Positions 57,258 through 64,000 of a DNA stretch of 64,000 nucleotides are shown here, one piece after another. The position numbers and the translations under genes are program-made. How positions within the stretch are numbered: the stretch's first letter is position 1; each line of letters begins with the position of its first letter. This DNA is from Polyangiales bacterium (lineage in GTDB: Bacteria > Myxococcota_A > Polyangia > Polyangiales > Ga0077539). The DNA lies in the NCBI GenBank assembly GCA_044229975.1, contig JBGARZ010000011.1, forward strand, positions 160,001 through 224,000, in the 5' to 3' direction. Under the pieces are notes generated by a model. That model searched no databases. It saw only the letters and a program-made list of their open reading frames with translations, and was not told where the DNA came from.

Positions 57258-59469
57258 ATGCCTGCTTGCCATCAATGCGGCGGCCAGACCAACGCTCCCC
57301 GCAACGGAGCGTGCAGCATCTGCCGGGCTGCCGGACAGGACTTCTGCGCCACCTGCGCGCTCTGGGAGCTGGGCCCGCTGTCGGCCCCGGCCGGGCTGCC
57401 GAGGGGGATGCGCCCAGACCCGGACCAGCTCACCCCCGTGCGGAACTGTCCGCTCAGGCGTGAGCTCCGCGACAAGAACCTCAGGCGCCTCGCCAACGAG
57501 TGCGAGCTGCTCACCTGGCAGCGCACCGAGAACCCCAACCTCTACCCCGGCAAGACCTTCAACGAAGCGCTCAACGACGCCCTCGCCGTCTACGACGAGG
57601 TGTACGGCACGTCGGGCCTCGACCGCCGCATGATGCGCGCCCTCATCACGGTGCACCTCTCGGCGCAGGAGGTCGCCGTGCGCCACCGCGTCCAGCAGGA
57701 CGACCGGATGGAAGCCCTCGAATCGGACATCGAGCGACTGGAGCGTGAACGCAAGGTTGCGACCGACAGCATTCCTCCCCTGGAGATGGCGCTCGCGAAG
57801 GCCATGGAGAGGTCCAACTCGCGCTGGAAGCGGAGGCGCGCGTCCGGGATGCTCGCCGCGCAGCAGTGCGTGGTGGACATCAACCAGGCGAAGCTCGACG
57901 TCGAGCGCCTCACGCAGGACATCGCCAACCGGCGCAACGAGCCGCACATCATCCGGCACGTCCACCGGCACGACGCGCCGCTCGTCGCCGCCAAGCACCT
58001 CGGCGTCTGCTTCTACGACGAGGTCGCCCCGGCCCGGAGGAAGATCGCGCGGAAGGCCCTCACCTCGGAGGTCGTCGAGATGGTGCTGCGGAAGAAGATG
58101 CCCCTCGGCATCGCCCGCATGGCGCTGCGCGAGGAGGGCGGCAGCGCCGCCAACGCGAAGAAGATGCTGGAGATCGGCATCGCGCTCTACCACGCACGCA
58201 CGGCGCACCGACCGTCCGACGGGTTTCAGCAGGGCGGCTTCGACCCGCGCCGCGCGCCCGGGTACATGAACGACGAGCACCGGACCTTCCTCTTCGGCGC
58301 AAACCCCGGAGAGATCCCCCTCCTCACCGACGAGGCGAAGACGCTGCTGGGAACGCTCTACGCCTCCCTCGACGTCGCGGTCGGCAACGGCCCGCGCTTC
58401 GCCGACCCCGAGGTCGCGACGGAGCTGCAAAACGGCCGCATCACCGCCGCGCAGGCGGCCTACCTCCAGTTTCTGCCGCGCATGGACGAGGCCGTCCCTG
58501 GCAACCGCACCGGCTGCGAGACGGAGGTGCGCTCGAAGGTGCTCGACCGCCTGGAGCTGCTGCTCCCCGCCTCACGACACGACGCGACGGTGTGGCTCGA
58601 CGGGGTCATCGCCGACCTGCGGGCCAACTACTACCTGGCGACGTCGAGCCACAACGGGATGATCGCGTCGTACGCCGCGGCCCCGACGACGGCGGCGGTG
58701 GAGTCGGCCGCGGTGCGCGCGAGCGGCGACGTCAACTGGGCCGACGTGCTGCCGTGCAGCGGCATCGGGGGCTCGTTTCGCGGCACCCGCTACGACCTCA
58801 ACTGGCACCGGGCGCAGTCCGACGGCCGCCAGGCGTGCTGGCACTACTTCGACTGGCGCAACGACAAGGACCGCGCGCTCTACGACTTCTTCCCGATGAG
58901 CATCCCCGAGCGACCGATCTTCGTGTCGCTCTCCATGGCCGAAGACCTCCCCGAGGTCGACACCCGCTACGGCATCCACACCGTCGTCTGGAACAACTCC
59001 CTCTTCCGCCGCGCGGCCTTCACCCTCGGCGACAAGGGCAACCCCCGGCGCAGCATGCTGCTCATCCTGCGCGACCTGCTGTACCCGATCCCCCTCAAGG
59101 ACGGCAGCGCCGCCCACACCACCGCCGACCGCGCGCTCACCTTTGGCAACATCCACGAGCGCTGGGAGCGGCGCGCTGCCCGTCAGGTCTTCGGCCAGGC
59201 GGCCTTCACCAACCTGCTCCTCGATCGCAAGACCCGGATGAGCGTCACCGCCAACGTCGAGGCGCACGTCTTCGGCCCGGTCAACATCCACAACCACGCG
59301 CGGTCTCATCCTCCAGGACGGCGACACGCGCGACGCCGTGCTCCGCGCGGTGCCGCTGCCCACCTGGACGCCAGTGCACTACACCGTGATTCCCGCCGAT
59401 CGCGTGACCCGCGACCCGCGGCTGCTCACCGACAACGCCCAGACCCAGACCATCATCAAGGACCTGTGA
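57258..59469 (+). pseudogene. Putative effector (Zn-finger, coiled coil, DUF3626-like C-terminus) with frameshift near 59301
   Basis: AGGAG RBS; CHQC/CSIC/CATC; ERPIFVSL...RYG...RAAFTLGD...VEAHVFG; the natural-looking continuation GLILQDGD...IIKDL* lies in another frame ending at 59469. Confidence 0.6.
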
Positions 59470-59473
59470 CGCC

Positions 59474-60286
59474 CTACGCCGTGCCGACGATCACCCGCGG
59501 GTGAACCACGGCGCCCGCCGTCCCCACCAGCCGCACGCCCGGCATCACGCACGCCACCACGAGCCCCTCGTCCGCCGGCTCGGCGCGCTCGCCTGCCTTG
59601 TCCATCGTCGCCGCGTTGAAGCGCTGCCCCACCTCGGGCACCACCAGGTCGCAGCCCGCCGCCGCCGCGGCCTTCGCCAGCGCCACCCCCTCGTCTGCCG
59701 TCAGCGCGCTCCGCACCGCGCTGCGCCCGCGCTCGCGCACGGCGCCCGTCAGCACCGCGTCCATGCGCTTCGTCTTCACCTGCCCGTAGCAACCCGGCGT
59801 CGCCTCCAGCGCGGCGCCGAGCGTCACCTGCGCCGCGTCGAAGAGGGCGCTCGCCTCGACGCCCAGCAGCGCGTCCACGAAGGCCCGCTCCGCCACGAAC
59901 TGCGCGTCCAACGACTGCACCTGCGCCGCCAGCGAGCGCGCCTCGTCCTCGCGGTCGGCGAGCTCGGCCTGCACCCGCGCGAGCTCCGTCGCCTGCGTCC
60001 GCATCGCGTCTTGTAGCTGGCGCGCTTCGAGGGTGTAGCGCTCGCGCTCGCCCAGCAGCCGCGCGAGCTCGGCGGCCTGCTGTGACTGCACCGCCCGCGA
60101 CGCGGCGAGCGTCTGCTCCAGCTCGGTGATGCGCGCGTCGTAGCCCGCGAGGTCGCGCGCCGACTGCGCGGTCGTGTACGCGACGTGCTGCCGGAGCTGC
60201 GCCTCGAACTGCGCCACCACGGCGTCGAGCTGCGCGCGGAGCGCCGCGGTCCAGGCCTTCGCGATGGGGTCGTCGTTGGCGGGCAT
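59474..60286 (-). CDS. Coiled-coil protein with GrpE-like C-terminal domain
   Basis: Long heptad region, then PEVGQRFNAATM...VVACVMPGVRL...VHPRVIV; TGATG coupling to the upstream gene. Confidence 0.75.
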   Translation of the reverse strand: MPANDDPIAKAWTAALRAQLDAVVAQFEAQLRQHVAYTTAQSARDLAGYDARITELEQTLAASRAVQSQQAAELARLLGERERYTLEARQLQDAMRTQATELARVQAELADREDEARSLAAQVQSLDAQFVAERAFVDALLGVEASALFDAAQVTLGAALEATPGCYGQVKTKRMDAVLTGAVRERGRSAVRSALTADEGVALAKAAAAAGCDLVVPEVGQRFNAATMDKAGERAEPADEGLVVACVMPGVRLVGTAGAVVHPRVIVGTA

Positions 60287-63018
60287 CACGCGAAGTAGGG
60301 TGCGAGGTTGAGGGGAGCGCGCACGGCCGTGCCGTCGGCGAGGACGAGGTGCACCATCACCGAGGTGGGCGACGACGGGCACAGGTACAGGCGACCCGTC
60401 GCGTCGAGGGGGATCTCCGGGCGCACCGAGATGATCCGCGGATCGTTGGCCCCCATCCGACCGGGCTCGTACTCCTTGGCGATGCGGAGGGGCTTCTGGC
60501 CGTTCCAGGGGCCGAAGTCGAGGTAGTGATCGCCGAAGGGCTCGGGGCTACGCGGCAGCGTACCCATCGGGAGGAGCGCCGTGAACTTCGGCGGAAAGCC
60601 GCGCAGGTCGCCCACGAAGAAGCTGAAGCCCTGCGCCGCGCGCACGAGGTGGACGTCGCGGTTGGCGATGCGAAGTGCGCCGAGGGCCACGGCGGTCTTC
60701 GGCGTCACCCCGATGATCTCGGCGCCGCGCTCGACCCGCGACGGCGTCTCGTAGCGAACTACCCCCTGCGGCGCGAAGTCATCCGTCGGGGTCCACACCT
60801 TGAGGTCGGGCGCGTCGAGCGCCTGCGCGAGGGCCCGCTCGACGTAGTCCGAGCGCGAGCTGTTGCCCGCCAGCAGGATCACCACGCCGCGATCACGCCA
60901 CCCGCTCGCGGGCTGCACCGAGCCGGCGGCGCCGGGCTCCCACGGGGTCGACGCGATCATGCTCGCAAGCTGCCGCGCCCCATCACGAACGCGCTCTTCG
61001 AGGTGCGTTCCCAGGCGCTTCTGGACGCCCGCGAGGTCGGTCTTGAGCGACTCCAGCGAGACCTCGGACTCGTCGAGCTTGCGAGCGACCAGCGAGTCGA
61101 CGCGGGCCATCTCGTTGGCGCGCTTGAACTTCACCTGCTCAAGCGCGAGGGCGTCTTGAAAGCGCACCTTGTTCTGTCGCGCCGCGAGCGAGCGCTTATA
61201 GAGCTGCGGCGAGCGCGCGAGCTTGTTTTCGGGGATGGTCACCGGCCGCTGCATGGGCACTTCGCGTGACTCCATCTCGGGCAGGTGCTCGGGGTGCTGA
61301 TGAACGAGCCACACGAGCTCGTGGGTGAGGTAGTCGCCGCCGAGGTGATCGTCGCCCGCGACCTGCAAGGTCTCGATGACGGAGGTGCAGCCCGAGGCGG
61401 CTTCTTCGTCGGGCGTCGCGGGGCGGTAGCGACCGCAGGCGATGTCGAGGGTTCCGCCGCCGAAGTCGAAGACGGCGAAGCGCAGCTCACCGAACTTCTC
61501 GACGAGCGGCGCAAACGCGGGGTGCGCCGCGAGCTCGGGGCACACCTCGGCGGCGTAGGCCTCGGGCTCGGTGGCCTGCATCTGGACGGTGACCTCTTCG
61601 GACGCGATGCCCTCGGGGACCGACAGCAGGATGCCCGCGCGCAGCTCCTCGACGAGCAGGGAGCGAGCGCGCTCGTCGAACTCGGCGGGATAGGTCAGCC
61701 AGTAGCGGAGGAAGACCTCTTGACCGGGCCGGTTGATGGCGCGGCCGAGGAGGTAGCCGTAGGCGCGAACCACCATGCGGACGCGGGGTTCGTCGAGGAG
61801 GAAGTCGGCGCGCTTCTCGCGGTCACGGAGCTGCGGCGCCTGGTCGAGCGCGAATACGCGCTCGGGTAACGATTTGATCTCGGTGACGACGGCGTTGGGA
61901 AACTCGCTGAGCTTCTCGCGCGCGGCGTGCGACGCCTGGACGACGCGGAGGAGGTCGGGGAAGCGCTCGCCGCGGGAGAGCTCGGCCCAGAGGCGCTCGT
62001 GGTCTTCGATGAGGAGGACGGTGGGGTTTTCGGCGGGGTTGGTGCGCGCGTCGGGCGGCGAGCCGAGGCGCATGAGCGCGCGATAGCCCTGGTGGGTGAA
62101 GGCCGCGACGGTGGCGGTGGTGCCGAAGTCGATGCCGACGCCGGAGAGGCGGCGGAAGGCGGCGAGCGAGGTGCGCGGGTCGCGCAGACGAAGGGCGACG
62201 GTGCGGGTCCAGGAGAGGAAGAGCGCGGGCACGTCGAGGCCGTCGAGGGGAGCGACGGCGAGGGGGTGGATGACGACGAGGCGCAGCGGGAGGTCGGCGC
62301 CCTCGGGCGGGACGGCGTCGCGGAGCGAGGGGTGCGAGGTGTCGAGGTAGAGCTCGGAGTAGGTTCGTCGGCCGCCGGCGCGGCGGGTGGCGTCTTCGCG
62401 AACGGCGTCGCCGGAGAAGGTCGGGTGCACGACGCGGAGGACGAGCTCGGAGGGCTTGGCGTCGAGGGTGAAGGGGTCACCGTCGGGCGGGCGCTTCCAG
62501 TCGGCGAGGAGGCGGAGGCGCCAGCGGCCGGTGCCGAGCCAGAAGCCCTCCTCGGGGTTTTGCAGGTCGGCGAGGGTGCGCTCGGGGCCGTTGACGAGGA
62601 GTGAGTCGGTGGCCTCGCGCAGCTCGAAGGAGTCGGGCGAGAGCGCGAGATTGGTGGGGACGAGTTGCAGACGCGCGAGCTGGAGCGAGCGGCCGTTGAC
62701 GACGAGGTCGACGCGGCGTGGATCGCCCGCGAGCGAGGAGAGCTCGGCGAAGGGGACGGAGAGCTCGACGTCGAAGGAGAGGTCGTCGCGAACGGTGGCC
62801 GCGACGGTGGCGGAGCGGGTGACGCGGTCGATGGCGAGGGCGGCGTCGAAGGGCTGCTCGCAGACGCCGGAGACGCGCACGACGAGGCGGGCGCCGGGCC
62901 AGGAGGGCGGCAGCGGGAGGCGCGCGGTGTGGAGCGCGTCGAGGAGGTCGGTGTGCACCACGAGGTCGGCGCCGTGGAGCTCGTAGGTGAAGGAGTCAAC
63001 GCGCACGGCATCGGTCAT
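60286..63018 (-). CDS. Divergent Hsp70/actin-fold ATPase with ~300 aa N-terminal extension
   Basis: GIDFGTT, TEPEAYA, VFDFGGGTLDI, GDDHLGGD, LAGNSSR, PKTAVALGA. Confidence 0.85.
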   Translation of the reverse strand: MTDAVRVDSFTYELHGADLVVHTDLLDALHTARLPLPPSWPGARLVVRVSGVCEQPFDAALAIDRVTRSATVAATVRDDLSFDVELSVPFAELSSLAGDPRRVDLVVNGRSLQLARLQLVPTNLALSPDSFELREATDSLLVNGPERTLADLQNPEEGFWLGTGRWRLRLLADWKRPPDGDPFTLDAKPSELVLRVVHPTFSGDAVREDATRRAGGRRTYSELYLDTSHPSLRDAVPPEGADLPLRLVVIHPLAVAPLDGLDVPALFLSWTRTVALRLRDPRTSLAAFRRLSGVGIDFGTTATVAAFTHQGYRALMRLGSPPDARTNPAENPTVLLIEDHERLWAELSRGERFPDLLRVVQASHAAREKLSEFPNAVVTEIKSLPERVFALDQAPQLRDREKRADFLLDEPRVRMVVRAYGYLLGRAINRPGQEVFLRYWLTYPAEFDERARSLLVEELRAGILLSVPEGIASEEVTVQMQATEPEAYAAEVCPELAAHPAFAPLVEKFGELRFAVFDFGGGTLDIACGRYRPATPDEEAASGCTSVIETLQVAGDDHLGGDYLTHELVWLVHQHPEHLPEMESREVPMQRPVTIPENKLARSPQLYKRSLAARQNKVRFQDALALEQVKFKRANEMARVDSLVARKLDESEVSLESLKTDLAGVQKRLGTHLEERVRDGARQLASMIASTPWEPGAAGSVQPASGWRDRGVVILLAGNSSRSDYVERALAQALDAPDLKVWTPTDDFAPQGVVRYETPSRVERGAEIIGVTPKTAVALGALRIANRDVHLVRAAQGFSFFVGDLRGFPPKFTALLPMGTLPRSPEPFGDHYLDFGPWNGQKPLRIAKEYEPGRMGANDPRIISVRPEIPLDATGRLYLCPSSPTSVMVHLVLADGTAVRAPLNLAPYFA

Positions 63019-63065
63019 GGCAGTGGGCGGGGGTTGTATCACGGTGGGGGGTGGCGGCTGGGGAT

Positions 63066-63120
63066 GGGGACGGACTCAGCTTTTCACCTTGCCGAAAGGT
63101 GAAAAGCTGAGTCCGTCCCC
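63066..63120. repeat. Perfect 25-bp-stem palindrome (REP-like)
   Basis: ggggacggactcagcttttcacctt-gccga-aaggtgaaaagctgagtccgtcccc. Confidence 0.9.
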
Positions 63121-63127
63121 GCCCCGT

Positions 63128-64000
63128 TCACTCCGCCCCCGCGTCCCCCGCCGTCCCCACCGTCGCTGCCGCCGTCGCTGCGCCCGCGGTCGCCCACTCG
63201 CGCAGCGCGGCCGTCGCCCAGCGCGTCTCCGCGCTCGCGCTCTCGCCCGGGTCCAGCGCCCCCTGCATCCAGTCCGACGCCCCGCGCGCATCGCCCGCCG
63301 CCCGCGCCCGCAGCCCCAGGTAGTACCCGGTCTGCCACTGCTGCTCTTCGCTGTCCGCCTGCGCGCGCACCGCCTCCATCGGCGACAGCTCCATCAGGTG
63401 CCGCGCCAGCACGTGCGCCCACGTCCCGCTCTCGCTCGCCCGCAGGTGATCCATCAGCTCCGCCCGATGAGGGTCTTCCCCTGCCCGTCGCAGCGACGCC
63501 GCCGCGCGCAGCAGCCACACCCGGTCGCCGCTCGCACCGCCCGCCGGGGTCTCCACCACGCTCCACAGCAGCTCGTCGAGCCGACGCTCGAAGGCCACCT
63601 CCGCGAAGTCCCCGCGCTGCCCCACCGCGACCTGCCCCTGCAACCACTCCGCGGCCGCCAGCTCACCCTCGCCCGAGATTCGCAGCCGATAGCGGTCGGC
63701 CAGCAGCGCCAGCGCCGTCGCGCCTTCGCCCTCCAGGTGCGCGTGGATCTCCGCCCCCACCGCACCGTGCCCCGGTCGGATCATCGCCCCCAGCAGCGAC
63801 GACCGCCGCATCACGTCGATGCTCCCGCCGAGCGCCTCGATCGCCCGCTGCCCCTCGCTCGCCGAGCGCCCCGCAAACACCGCGTCGAAGCTCCCGCCGA
63901 CGCTCTCCTCCCACGCCCGGTCGCTCATCGTCGCCACCCGCGACGACAGCGCCTCCGACGCGCCCGCCAGGTCGTTGCGCCGCCACCGCACCTCCGCCAG
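63128..64000 (-). CDS. TPR-like helical protein, 3' part only
   Basis: Frame open to the window edge; WQTGYYLGLRARAAGD...A..W NlpI-like TPR end. Confidence 0.7.
   Translation of the reverse strand: MAEVRWRRNDLAGASEALSSRVATMSDRAWEESVGGSFDAVFAGRSASEGQRAIEALGGSIDVMRRSSLLGAMIRPGHGAVGAEIHAHLEGEGATALALLADRYRLRISGEGELAAAEWLQGQVAVGQRGDFAEVAFERRLDELLWSVVETPAGGASGDRVWLLRAAASLRRAGEDPHRAELMDHLRASESGTWAHVLARHLMELSPMEAVRAQADSEEQQWQTGYYLGLRARAAGDARGASDWMQGALDPGESASAETRWATAALREWATAGAATAAATVGTAGDAGAE

Follow-up and report, generated by a model that had tools for sequence, protein, structure and literature searches.

The ATPase and its domains

We investigated two overlapping genes in a 64,000-nucleotide window (the whole stretch of DNA analyzed) from a Polyangiales bacterium (contig JBGARZ010000011.1 of assembly GCA_044229975.1), which encode an Hsp70-like ATPase, hereafter P0001, and a coiled-coil protein, hereafter P0002. 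The module to which they belong is a conserved, undescribed form of the Hsp70 machine; of its partners, a dynamin is the most constant. The features of the locus are as follows:

60286 to 63018, minus strand: P0001 gene, 910-amino-acid (aa) Hsp70-like ATPase without a lid (open reading frame, homologues, AlphaFold model, structure search)
62164 to 63018, minus strand: N-terminal all-beta region of P0001, aa 1–285, probably two beta-sandwich domains (AlphaFold model, profile comparison)
60649 to 62151, minus strand: Hsp70-type nucleotide-binding domain of P0001, aa 290–790 (model, structure alignment, motifs)
60289 to 60630, minus strand: C-terminal beta domain of P0001, aa 797–910, without a helical lid (model, structure alignment)
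59474 to 60286, minus strand: P0002 gene, 270-aa coiled-coil protein with a GrpE-like tail, start overlapping the upstream stop in TGATG (open reading frame, model, profile comparisons)
59477 to 59704, minus strand: helix and beta tail of P0002, GrpE-like, aa 195–270 (transitive profile matches)
63060 to 63125, no strand: strong hairpin with a 27-bp inner stem (−58 kcal/mol) between the gene of a 961-aa protein and the P0001 gene (upstream edge of the module)

Both reading frames are real genes, as judged from their G+C content at third codon positions (GC3; 0.92 for P0001 and 0.97 for P0002, with 0.96 for dnaK of the same genome) and from full-length homologues at 54–94% and 41–89% identity, respectively. 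P0001 is present as a single copy in 26 of the 30 genomes of its own family, and its close homologues, where named, are labelled Polyangiales, Polyangium, or Chondromyces. The initial annotation had claimed a stop/ATG overlap, which is the TGATG shared by the two genes, and five diverged Hsp70 motifs, all of which were located in the P0001 frame (GIDFGTT at residues 295–301, TEPEA at 483–487, DFGGGT at 518–523, GDDHLGG at 555–561, and AGNSSR at 717–722).

The AlphaFold model of P0001, built from an 87-sequence alignment, reached a predicted local distance difference test score (pLDDT) of 94 and a predicted template modelling score (pTM) of 0.90, and comprises strands alone at residues 5–280, an Hsp70 ATPase domain at about 290–790, and a small beta domain at 797–904. 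The annotated layout of about 300 beta-rich aa at the N-terminus and a tail of about 120 aa agrees with the roughly 290 all-beta aa before and 120 aa after the modelled ATPase domain, and the model likewise has no helical lid. Top Foldseek matches of the model were all Hsp70/Hsp110 (E 2e-18), and VIA structure alignment gave Z 28.4 for BiP (root-mean-square deviation, rmsd, 2.9 over 362 aligned residues), Z 27–29 across BiP/DnaK, and a lower Z 24.4 for MreB. The nucleotide-binding domain, enlarged to about 500 aa by big insertions, is thus modelled as an Hsp70 fold, nearer to Hsp70 than to MreB or ParM.

All 87 aligned members keep D297, K382, P444, E484, D518, GGGT520-523, and D525; assigned by motif offset to the genome's own DnaK, the equivalents are D8 (D297), K70 (K382), P143 (P444), E171 (E484), D194 (D518), T199 (T523), and D201 (D525). 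Position 452, equivalent to DnaK R151, is R or K in 83 of the 87, and the position of R167, the J-domain docking arginine, is E or M in 68. In DnaK, these residues serve catalysis, the proline switch, and allostery, and R167 is used by J domains. Because the catalytic and allosteric residues are invariant and the R167 position is lost, P0001 is likely an active, allosteric, J-independent ATPase. As had been noted, no J-domain gene lies near: the genome has 13 J-domain matches, none of them on the contig of P0001 (C2), and the match nearest to the dynamin gene on contig C4 is 32 kb away.

The two ends of the protein are less familiar. In 84 family members, 125–153 aa follow the last ATPase motif, and in P0001 only strands lie beyond residue 790. 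Some alignments with ATP-state DnaK or BiP run into the beta part of the substrate-binding domain (SBD-beta) at rmsd 7–9, and the C-terminal profile scored 14.7 against the DnaK SBD, under the shuffled maximum of 16.8; the modelled C-terminal domain may be what is left of the substrate-binding beta sandwich of an Hsp70. The N-terminal region is the most variable part, with mean identities among 17 close relatives of 35% for aa 5–127 and 53% for aa 128–285, compared with 70% for the ATPase domain and 56% for the tail. Residues 128–283 are related to the N-terminal domain of a second family clade (hhalign P 45%, E 2e-4), and in the Foldseek search with the whole model the N-terminal region had weak Ig-like matches alone (E ~1e-3 to 1e-2).

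No Pfam model matched P0001 or P0002 over cut-off, Pfam HSP70 left P0001 unmatched, and NCBIfam scores of P0001 were far under cut-off (HscA 25.5 bits vs 620; DnaK 19.5 vs 648). The housekeeping grpE-dnaK pair lies on contig C19 and not at the P0001 locus, so the identity of P0001 and P0002 with the housekeeping DnaK/GrpE was rejected, and the earlier view of a module distinct from DnaK/HscA holds.

Dynamin and GrpE-like partners in Polyangiales

A dynamin-like GTPase gene directly follows the ATPase gene in Chondromyces and others. The genome of the window carries its dynamin, 70% identical, on another contig than P0001 (G000 C4:105804-108344). Assignment to the dynamin family rests on Dynamin_N over cut-off (42.7 bits) and on the G1 GxxxxGKS, G3 DxPG, and G4 TKxD motifs; the best PDB relative is Nostoc BDLP (E 0.002). 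There is one dynamin match per genome, split copies aside. Among 61 relatives (sample 1), 27 have the ATPase and 27 the dynamin, with 26 shared, and among 81 genomes of a neighboring family (sample 2), where the ATPase gene is patchy (carriers make up 18 of 80 genera), the corresponding numbers are 19, 20, and 19. Across all 142 genomes, 45 hold both genes, 94 neither, and three only one, these exceptions being incomplete genomes (57–77% complete). Ten of 25 extended loci are ordered ATPase, GrpE-like gene, dynamin (three of them with inserts of 2–4 kb), a further three run from ATPase to dynamin, and the dynamin is retained in carriers where its gene has moved away from the ATPase locus. The ATPase and the dynamin are therefore co-inherited almost without exception in the Polyangiales sample; we give no p-value for this co-occurrence because related genomes are not independent. 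A fusion search covering proteins of 2019–5000 aa found none; an ATPase-dynamin fusion, at about 1750 aa, would fall below that range. Several genomes (G364, G373, G302:C62, and G323:C61) hold ATPase, partner, or dynamin copies with internal stops or frameshifts; in G364, the dynamin is intact while the ATPase and partner genes are both broken.

P0002 is modelled as a single helix at residues 7–141 (135 residues) and four short helices (helices at pLDDT 72–98), followed by a tail whose residues 224–270 are of low confidence (pLDDT <50). The tail motif described initially, G-x-x-F...V..V.PG...V.V, is present after the coiled coil. Foldseek with this model, in which the tail has low confidence, gave no match at E ≤ 0.001, and Pfam PF01025 (GrpE) left P0002 unmatched, its only match in the genome being the contig C19 gene. 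In profile comparisons, the P0002 family matched the tails of distant partners (P 76%, E 2e-5, score 32, shuffled maximum 13.4), and these tails in turn matched GrpE (P 91%, E 1e-6, score 39, shuffled maximum 15.6), which makes a GrpE ancestry of the P0002 tail likely by a transitive route. Of the proposed GrpE-like partner, the co-occurring coiled coil and the tie of its tail to GrpE via distant members stand, and a GrpE fold as a three-dimensional structure found no confirmation in the model. An ESM feature search with aa 150–270 returned hypothetical clusters of Campylobacterota (0.91–0.93) and, as weak leads, eukaryotic MIEAP (0.82) and GrpE (0.81).

A P0002-type gene was found in 27 of the 46 ATPase carriers (19 of 27 and 8 of 19 in the two samples) and in one of 96 genomes without the ATPase, itself 77% complete; all eight in the second sample lie directly downstream of the ATPase gene. 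It is an accessory or optional member of the module, unlike the dynamin. The initial annotation named the GrpE-like protein as the coupled partner and overlooked the dynamin, which is the more constant of the two; the GrpE-like gene was not found in 19 of 46 carriers.

Similar tails recur far from Polyangiales. Coiled-coil genes with such a tail are held by 21 of 39 distant loci, although 16 of these trained the tail profile; the remaining five score 73, 45, 22, 16, and 11 bits. In two independent loci with enough flank, a tail-bearing gene lies directly upstream of the ATPase gene (62 and 51 bits); two short contigs gave no match, nor did any of 77 non-family loci. Against PDB sequences, the profile of the distant partners had coiled-coil matches alone among the matches listed.

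Regarding the other genes around the pair, the 961-aa upstream protein (window 63128-64000 and L001:1128-4013, minus strand) is alanine-rich and helical with a hydrophobic stretch at its N-terminus, and had no Pfam (E ≤ 0.01), NCBIfam, or PADLOC match; its earlier TPR label found no backing in the Pfam search. It had also been suggested as part of the module. It was rejected as a component, since it adjoins the ATPase gene in only 3 of 25 loci, all from its own genus, and the 27-bp hairpin intervenes. Related copies of this hairpin occur at five other places in the genome (contigs C3, C19, C23, C24, and C36), forming a small family like repetitive extragenic palindromes, and none was seen in the loci of relatives. 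On the other side, the 748-aa frame at 57258-59504 (plus strand) has no Pfam or NCBIfam match, no second copy in the genome, and no counterpart in 25 related loci. Its last 65 codons look off-frame, and from about 59305 onwards an alternative frame with GC3 0.94 continues until a stop at 59470, so this gene may be frameshifted or misassembled near 59300.

The wider family and known systems

The P0001 family is wide and unnamed, with what sequence comparison indicates are exchangeable N-terminal domains and partner NTPases. A search of 1.8 billion representatives yielded 458 proteins (50%-identity clusters) at E ≤ 1e-10, with members in Helicobacter, Pseudomonas, Acidithiobacillus, Paenibacillus, Lachnospiraceae, Selenomonadaceae, Treponema, and Bacteroidales, and a metagenome scan found three family loci among 80. 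No Pfam, NCBIfam, or PADLOC model exists for it, and neither the family nor the Polyangiales triad was found described in the literature covered, which excluded subscription papers and several supplements. The 87 aligned members have 239–558 aa before and 590–688 aa after the first motif, and are diverse at the N-terminus, where 3 of 46 scanned show a lectin-like Lcl_C at a score below cut-off. In a quick IQ-TREE search that excluded two distant candidates and a split copy of locus L088, the family stood apart from DnaK-type proteins and formed three clades, of which the Polyangiales clade has a long stem and short internal branches. Because of the quick search and a long-branch warning for this clade, no branching order or donor is claimed. 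Further Hsp70-like frames of 870–970 aa in L006 (G141), L030 (G146), and G230:C11:493431 are probably other atypical Hsp70 families, the first two scoring just 43–66 bits on the family profile.

Related dynamins flank four of 39 distant members (25–27% identity, E 1e-13 to 1e-23; three of the four trained the dynamin profile). Elsewhere, the partner NTPases are a HerA-like ATPase, a double AAA+ with a radical-SAM gene, or an EssC-like FtsK. A conserved HerA/TraG-like ATPase of 1000 aa with partner genes of 220–260 aa occurs in L071, L072, L076, L077, L094, L096, L097, L110, and L304; these loci span several phyla, with no named system over cut-off. A cassette common to Clostridia and Sulfurovum (L069, L070, and L100) combines the family ATPase, a coiled-coil gene, a radical-SAM gene (Fer4_12), two unknown genes, and an AAA+ ATPase. 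Tandem ATPase duplicates with differing N-terminal regions were seen in L066, L072, L086, L093, L094, L110, and L304, and one copy in L110 bears a biotin-lipoyl-like domain.

The family also reaches Helicobacter pylori. Primer 0060-R3 matches inside the family ATPase of L090 with three mismatches, and primer 0057-L1 matches L088 with two mismatches, 515 bases before a 348-aa coiled-coil gene, with no match in 200 shuffles for either; the other two of the four primer tests, both on L088, were negative. Both primers are listed in Table 1 of PMC4379086, the part of that paper used here. These matches, and a family-profile score of 434 bits, place HP0060 in the P0001 family by sequence and make HP0058 (Ccrp58), the 348-aa coiled coil, its likely partner. 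The GrpE-like tail of Ccrp58 is weak (15.9 bits, E 0.0035), and HP0060 falls in a clade other than that of P0001. The HP0058-HP0059-HP0060 locus thus resembles ours in its ATPase and tail but differs in that its NTPase is EssC/FtsK-like with a nuclease-immunity pair and no dynamin. The Helicobacter loci (L088, L090, and L080) run on into a WHH nuclease, a SUKH immunity gene, and the EssC-like FtsK; L088 and L080 carry split HP0060-type genes, and in L088 the Ccrp59-type gene is split too. In the accessible part of PMC4978471, HP0060 appears simply as a "DnaK homolog", in a "DnaK homolog, WxG100 family" cluster that is listed and not analyzed further.

Compared with known systems, P0001 shares with DnaK-GrpE, HscA, and HscC the Hsp70 nucleotide-binding fold, the catalytic and proline-switch residues, and a downstream beta domain, and with DnaK-GrpE the adjoining coiled-coil protein with a GrpE-like tail. 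It differs from DnaK, HscA, and HscC in its 290-aa all-beta N-terminus, insertions, missing lid, and lost R167 position, and further in having no nearby J gene, 14–20% structural identity, a separate long-stemmed clade, and a co-inherited dynamin. In SrfB-SrfC of srfABC, too, the gene of a large P-loop GTPase adjoins that of a large, N-terminally extended protein of the Hsp70/actin fold, and an ESM feature score of 0.90 linked P0001 to an SrfB cluster. Membership in SrfB/SrfC was rejected on the lack of a match to Pfam SrfB PF07520, about 2 bits of the family profile on three SrfB proteins (vs 20–48 bits on DnaK-type proteins), and the absence of an SrfC match; the dynamin profile had no match at E ≤ 1 in the three SrfB loci, a small sample. 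A cyanobacterial "chaperone" dynamin clade, as described in PMC5827413 (section 7 and supplement 1), is followed downstream by a DnaK-domain/SrfB gene and resembles the module in pairing an Hsp70-fold gene with a large GTPase.

The GAP1-N2 DO-GTPase conflict systems, as described in the accessible text of PMC7159879, also set an HSP70 without its peptide-binding part and a GrpE beside a TRAFAC GTPase, but their defining proteins, in actinobacteria and firmicutes, are DO-GTPase, GAP1, and FNIII/DnaJ. The Polyangiales loci showed none of these (no genome-wide search was made for GAP1 and FNIII), their GTPase is of the Dynamin_N and not the DO-GTPase type, and a DO-GTPase2 gene occurs in one distant locus alone (L082). 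CoCoNuT CnuD/CnuCD, according to the portion of PMC11090510 available, brings an Hsp70-like unit together with coiled coils and a GTPase; the ATPase motifs of CnuD are degenerate, and it carries HEAT repeats and is partnered by McrB/McrC, whereas the P0001 motifs are invariant, its model has no helical repeats, and its GTPase is dynamin-like (McrBC was not searched genome-wide). The dynamin itself resembles Eleos (LeoA/LeoBC), Bacillus subtilis DynA, and Nostoc BDLP in its G1, G3, and G4 motifs, and differs from them in being single, with no second dynamin or transmembrane segment, and tied to an Hsp70-like ATPase; it had no PADLOC or NCBIfam match.

Possible roles of the module

Because P0001 is co-inherited with a dynamin, lacks a lid, and has a likely GrpE-type neighbor, it likely serves an undescribed membrane-remodelling machine rather than general folding. 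That the ATPase and the dynamin act in one pathway is highly probable. Our leading but tentative proposal is that P0001 is a dedicated ATP-driven switch for the dynamin, controlling its assembly on membranes with P0002 as an optional GrpE-type exchange factor. The N-terminal beta-sandwich region would dock on the dynamin or sense a trigger, and the client, not a J protein, would stimulate the cycle of ATP binding and hydrolysis, which would set the balance between assembly of the dynamin on the inner membrane and its removal from it; a P0002 dimer would then free ADP and thereby reset P0001. In the Polyangiales clade, the stably inherited role may be membrane repair or remodelling, domesticated from a mobile family that pairs this ATPase with other P-loop machines.

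Several points weigh against this proposal. The contacts of the ATPase with the dynamin and with P0002 are postulated ones, and the co-inheritance, observed among kin, could stem from a single ancient operon. The dynamin lacks a transmembrane segment (the best 19-residue hydropathy, 1.7, is a beta strand), so that membrane binding is attributed to it from its family. The P0002 family compared directly with GrpE scored 17–19 against shuffled maxima of 15–16 (E 0.01–0.02), and its tail has no confident fold in the model. Across the family as a whole, few loci pair the ATPase with a dynamin (4 of 39, compared with 8 of 40 for a HerA-like partner), and distant members sit among defense genes. Disruption of HP0060 had no effect on growth or shape in the available part of PMC2776988.

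The main rival, which we rate somewhat below the switch proposal, is an anti-phage or conflict system in which the N-terminal domain senses an invader protein, the ATPase activates, and the partner NTPase acts as an effector that seals or destroys the cell. The N-terminal domain is indeed the most variable part and is swapped between lineages (lectin-like Lcl_C in some), and the family is patchy over Bacillota, Campylobacterota, Pseudomonadota, Spirochaetota, and Bacteroidota, with tandem duplications. An Acinetobacter plasmid locus combines WYL, an ATP-binding protein, a GrpE-like gene, two ATPase copies, HEPN, a dynamin fragment, an integrase, and HipBA, and other loci are flanked by type I restriction-modification and a PD-T7-1-like gene. 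Bacterial dynamins of Eleos/LeoABC and DynA act in defense, and one distant dynamin has a weak LeoBC match (26 bits). By contrast, PADLOC matched none of seven family ATPases and none of the Polyangiales dynamins, no defense or mobility genes were found among the window neighbors scanned, and the Polyangiales clade is single-copy, near-universal in its own family, and host-like in GC3, with short internal branches and with dynamin and ATPase both kept after unlinking. Membership in a PADLOC defense system, including Eleos/LeoABC, was rejected given the lack of a profile match and of paired dynamins. The conflict module suggested initially is thus plausible for the distant members, but the Polyangiales gene looks like a stably inherited single-copy one.

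It is improbable that the module is a cytoskeletal or cell-shape one, in which the coiled-coil partner would form filaments like Ccrp58/Ccrp59, organized by the actin-fold ATPase and the dynamin. P0002 contains a 135-residue helix, the H. pylori member lies at HP0060 with a coiled-coil gene with a weak GrpE-like tail at HP0058, and Ccrp59 forms filaments and sets helical shape in the part of PMC2776988 consulted, yet the same source reports unchanged shape on HP0060 disruption, P0001 is structurally nearer to Hsp70 than to MreB/ParM, and 19 of the 46 Polyangiales carriers gave no match for the coiled-coil gene. We give equally little weight to a specialized folding chaperone (HscA/HscC-like) for another client with a merely historical dynamin link: its catalytic and allosteric residue set is complete and its C-terminal domain overlaps SBD-beta in structure alignments, but P0001 has no lid, no J gene nearby, and no arginine at the R167 position, and every reasonably complete ATPase carrier, including unlinked ones, keeps the dynamin.

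The dynamin-switch proposal may extend to a widespread, unnamed class of bacterial machines, a doubtful generalization at present, in which an Hsp70 that lacks a lid and works independently of J proteins, with an exchangeable sensor domain and a GrpE-like factor of its own, would gate an equally exchangeable P-loop motor (dynamin, HerA-like, AAA+, or EssC-like). The Polyangiales module would then be a bacterial counterpart of Hsc70-driven assembly control of membrane-remodelling polymers, and Ccrp58 would be the GrpE-like cofactor of HP0060. Chloroplast Hsc70 reportedly controls VIPP1 oligomers, a functional analogy to the proposed ATPase-dynamin relation. What most bacterial dynamins do in vivo, and what regulates them, is an open question, and P0001 is a named candidate regulator, within a module that offers reconstitution from three proteins (ATPase, GrpE-like protein, and dynamin). 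H. pylori HP0060 and Ccrp58 likewise gain a testable biochemical role, and the family as a whole shows an Hsp70 engine reused without a lid and, likely, without a J protein.

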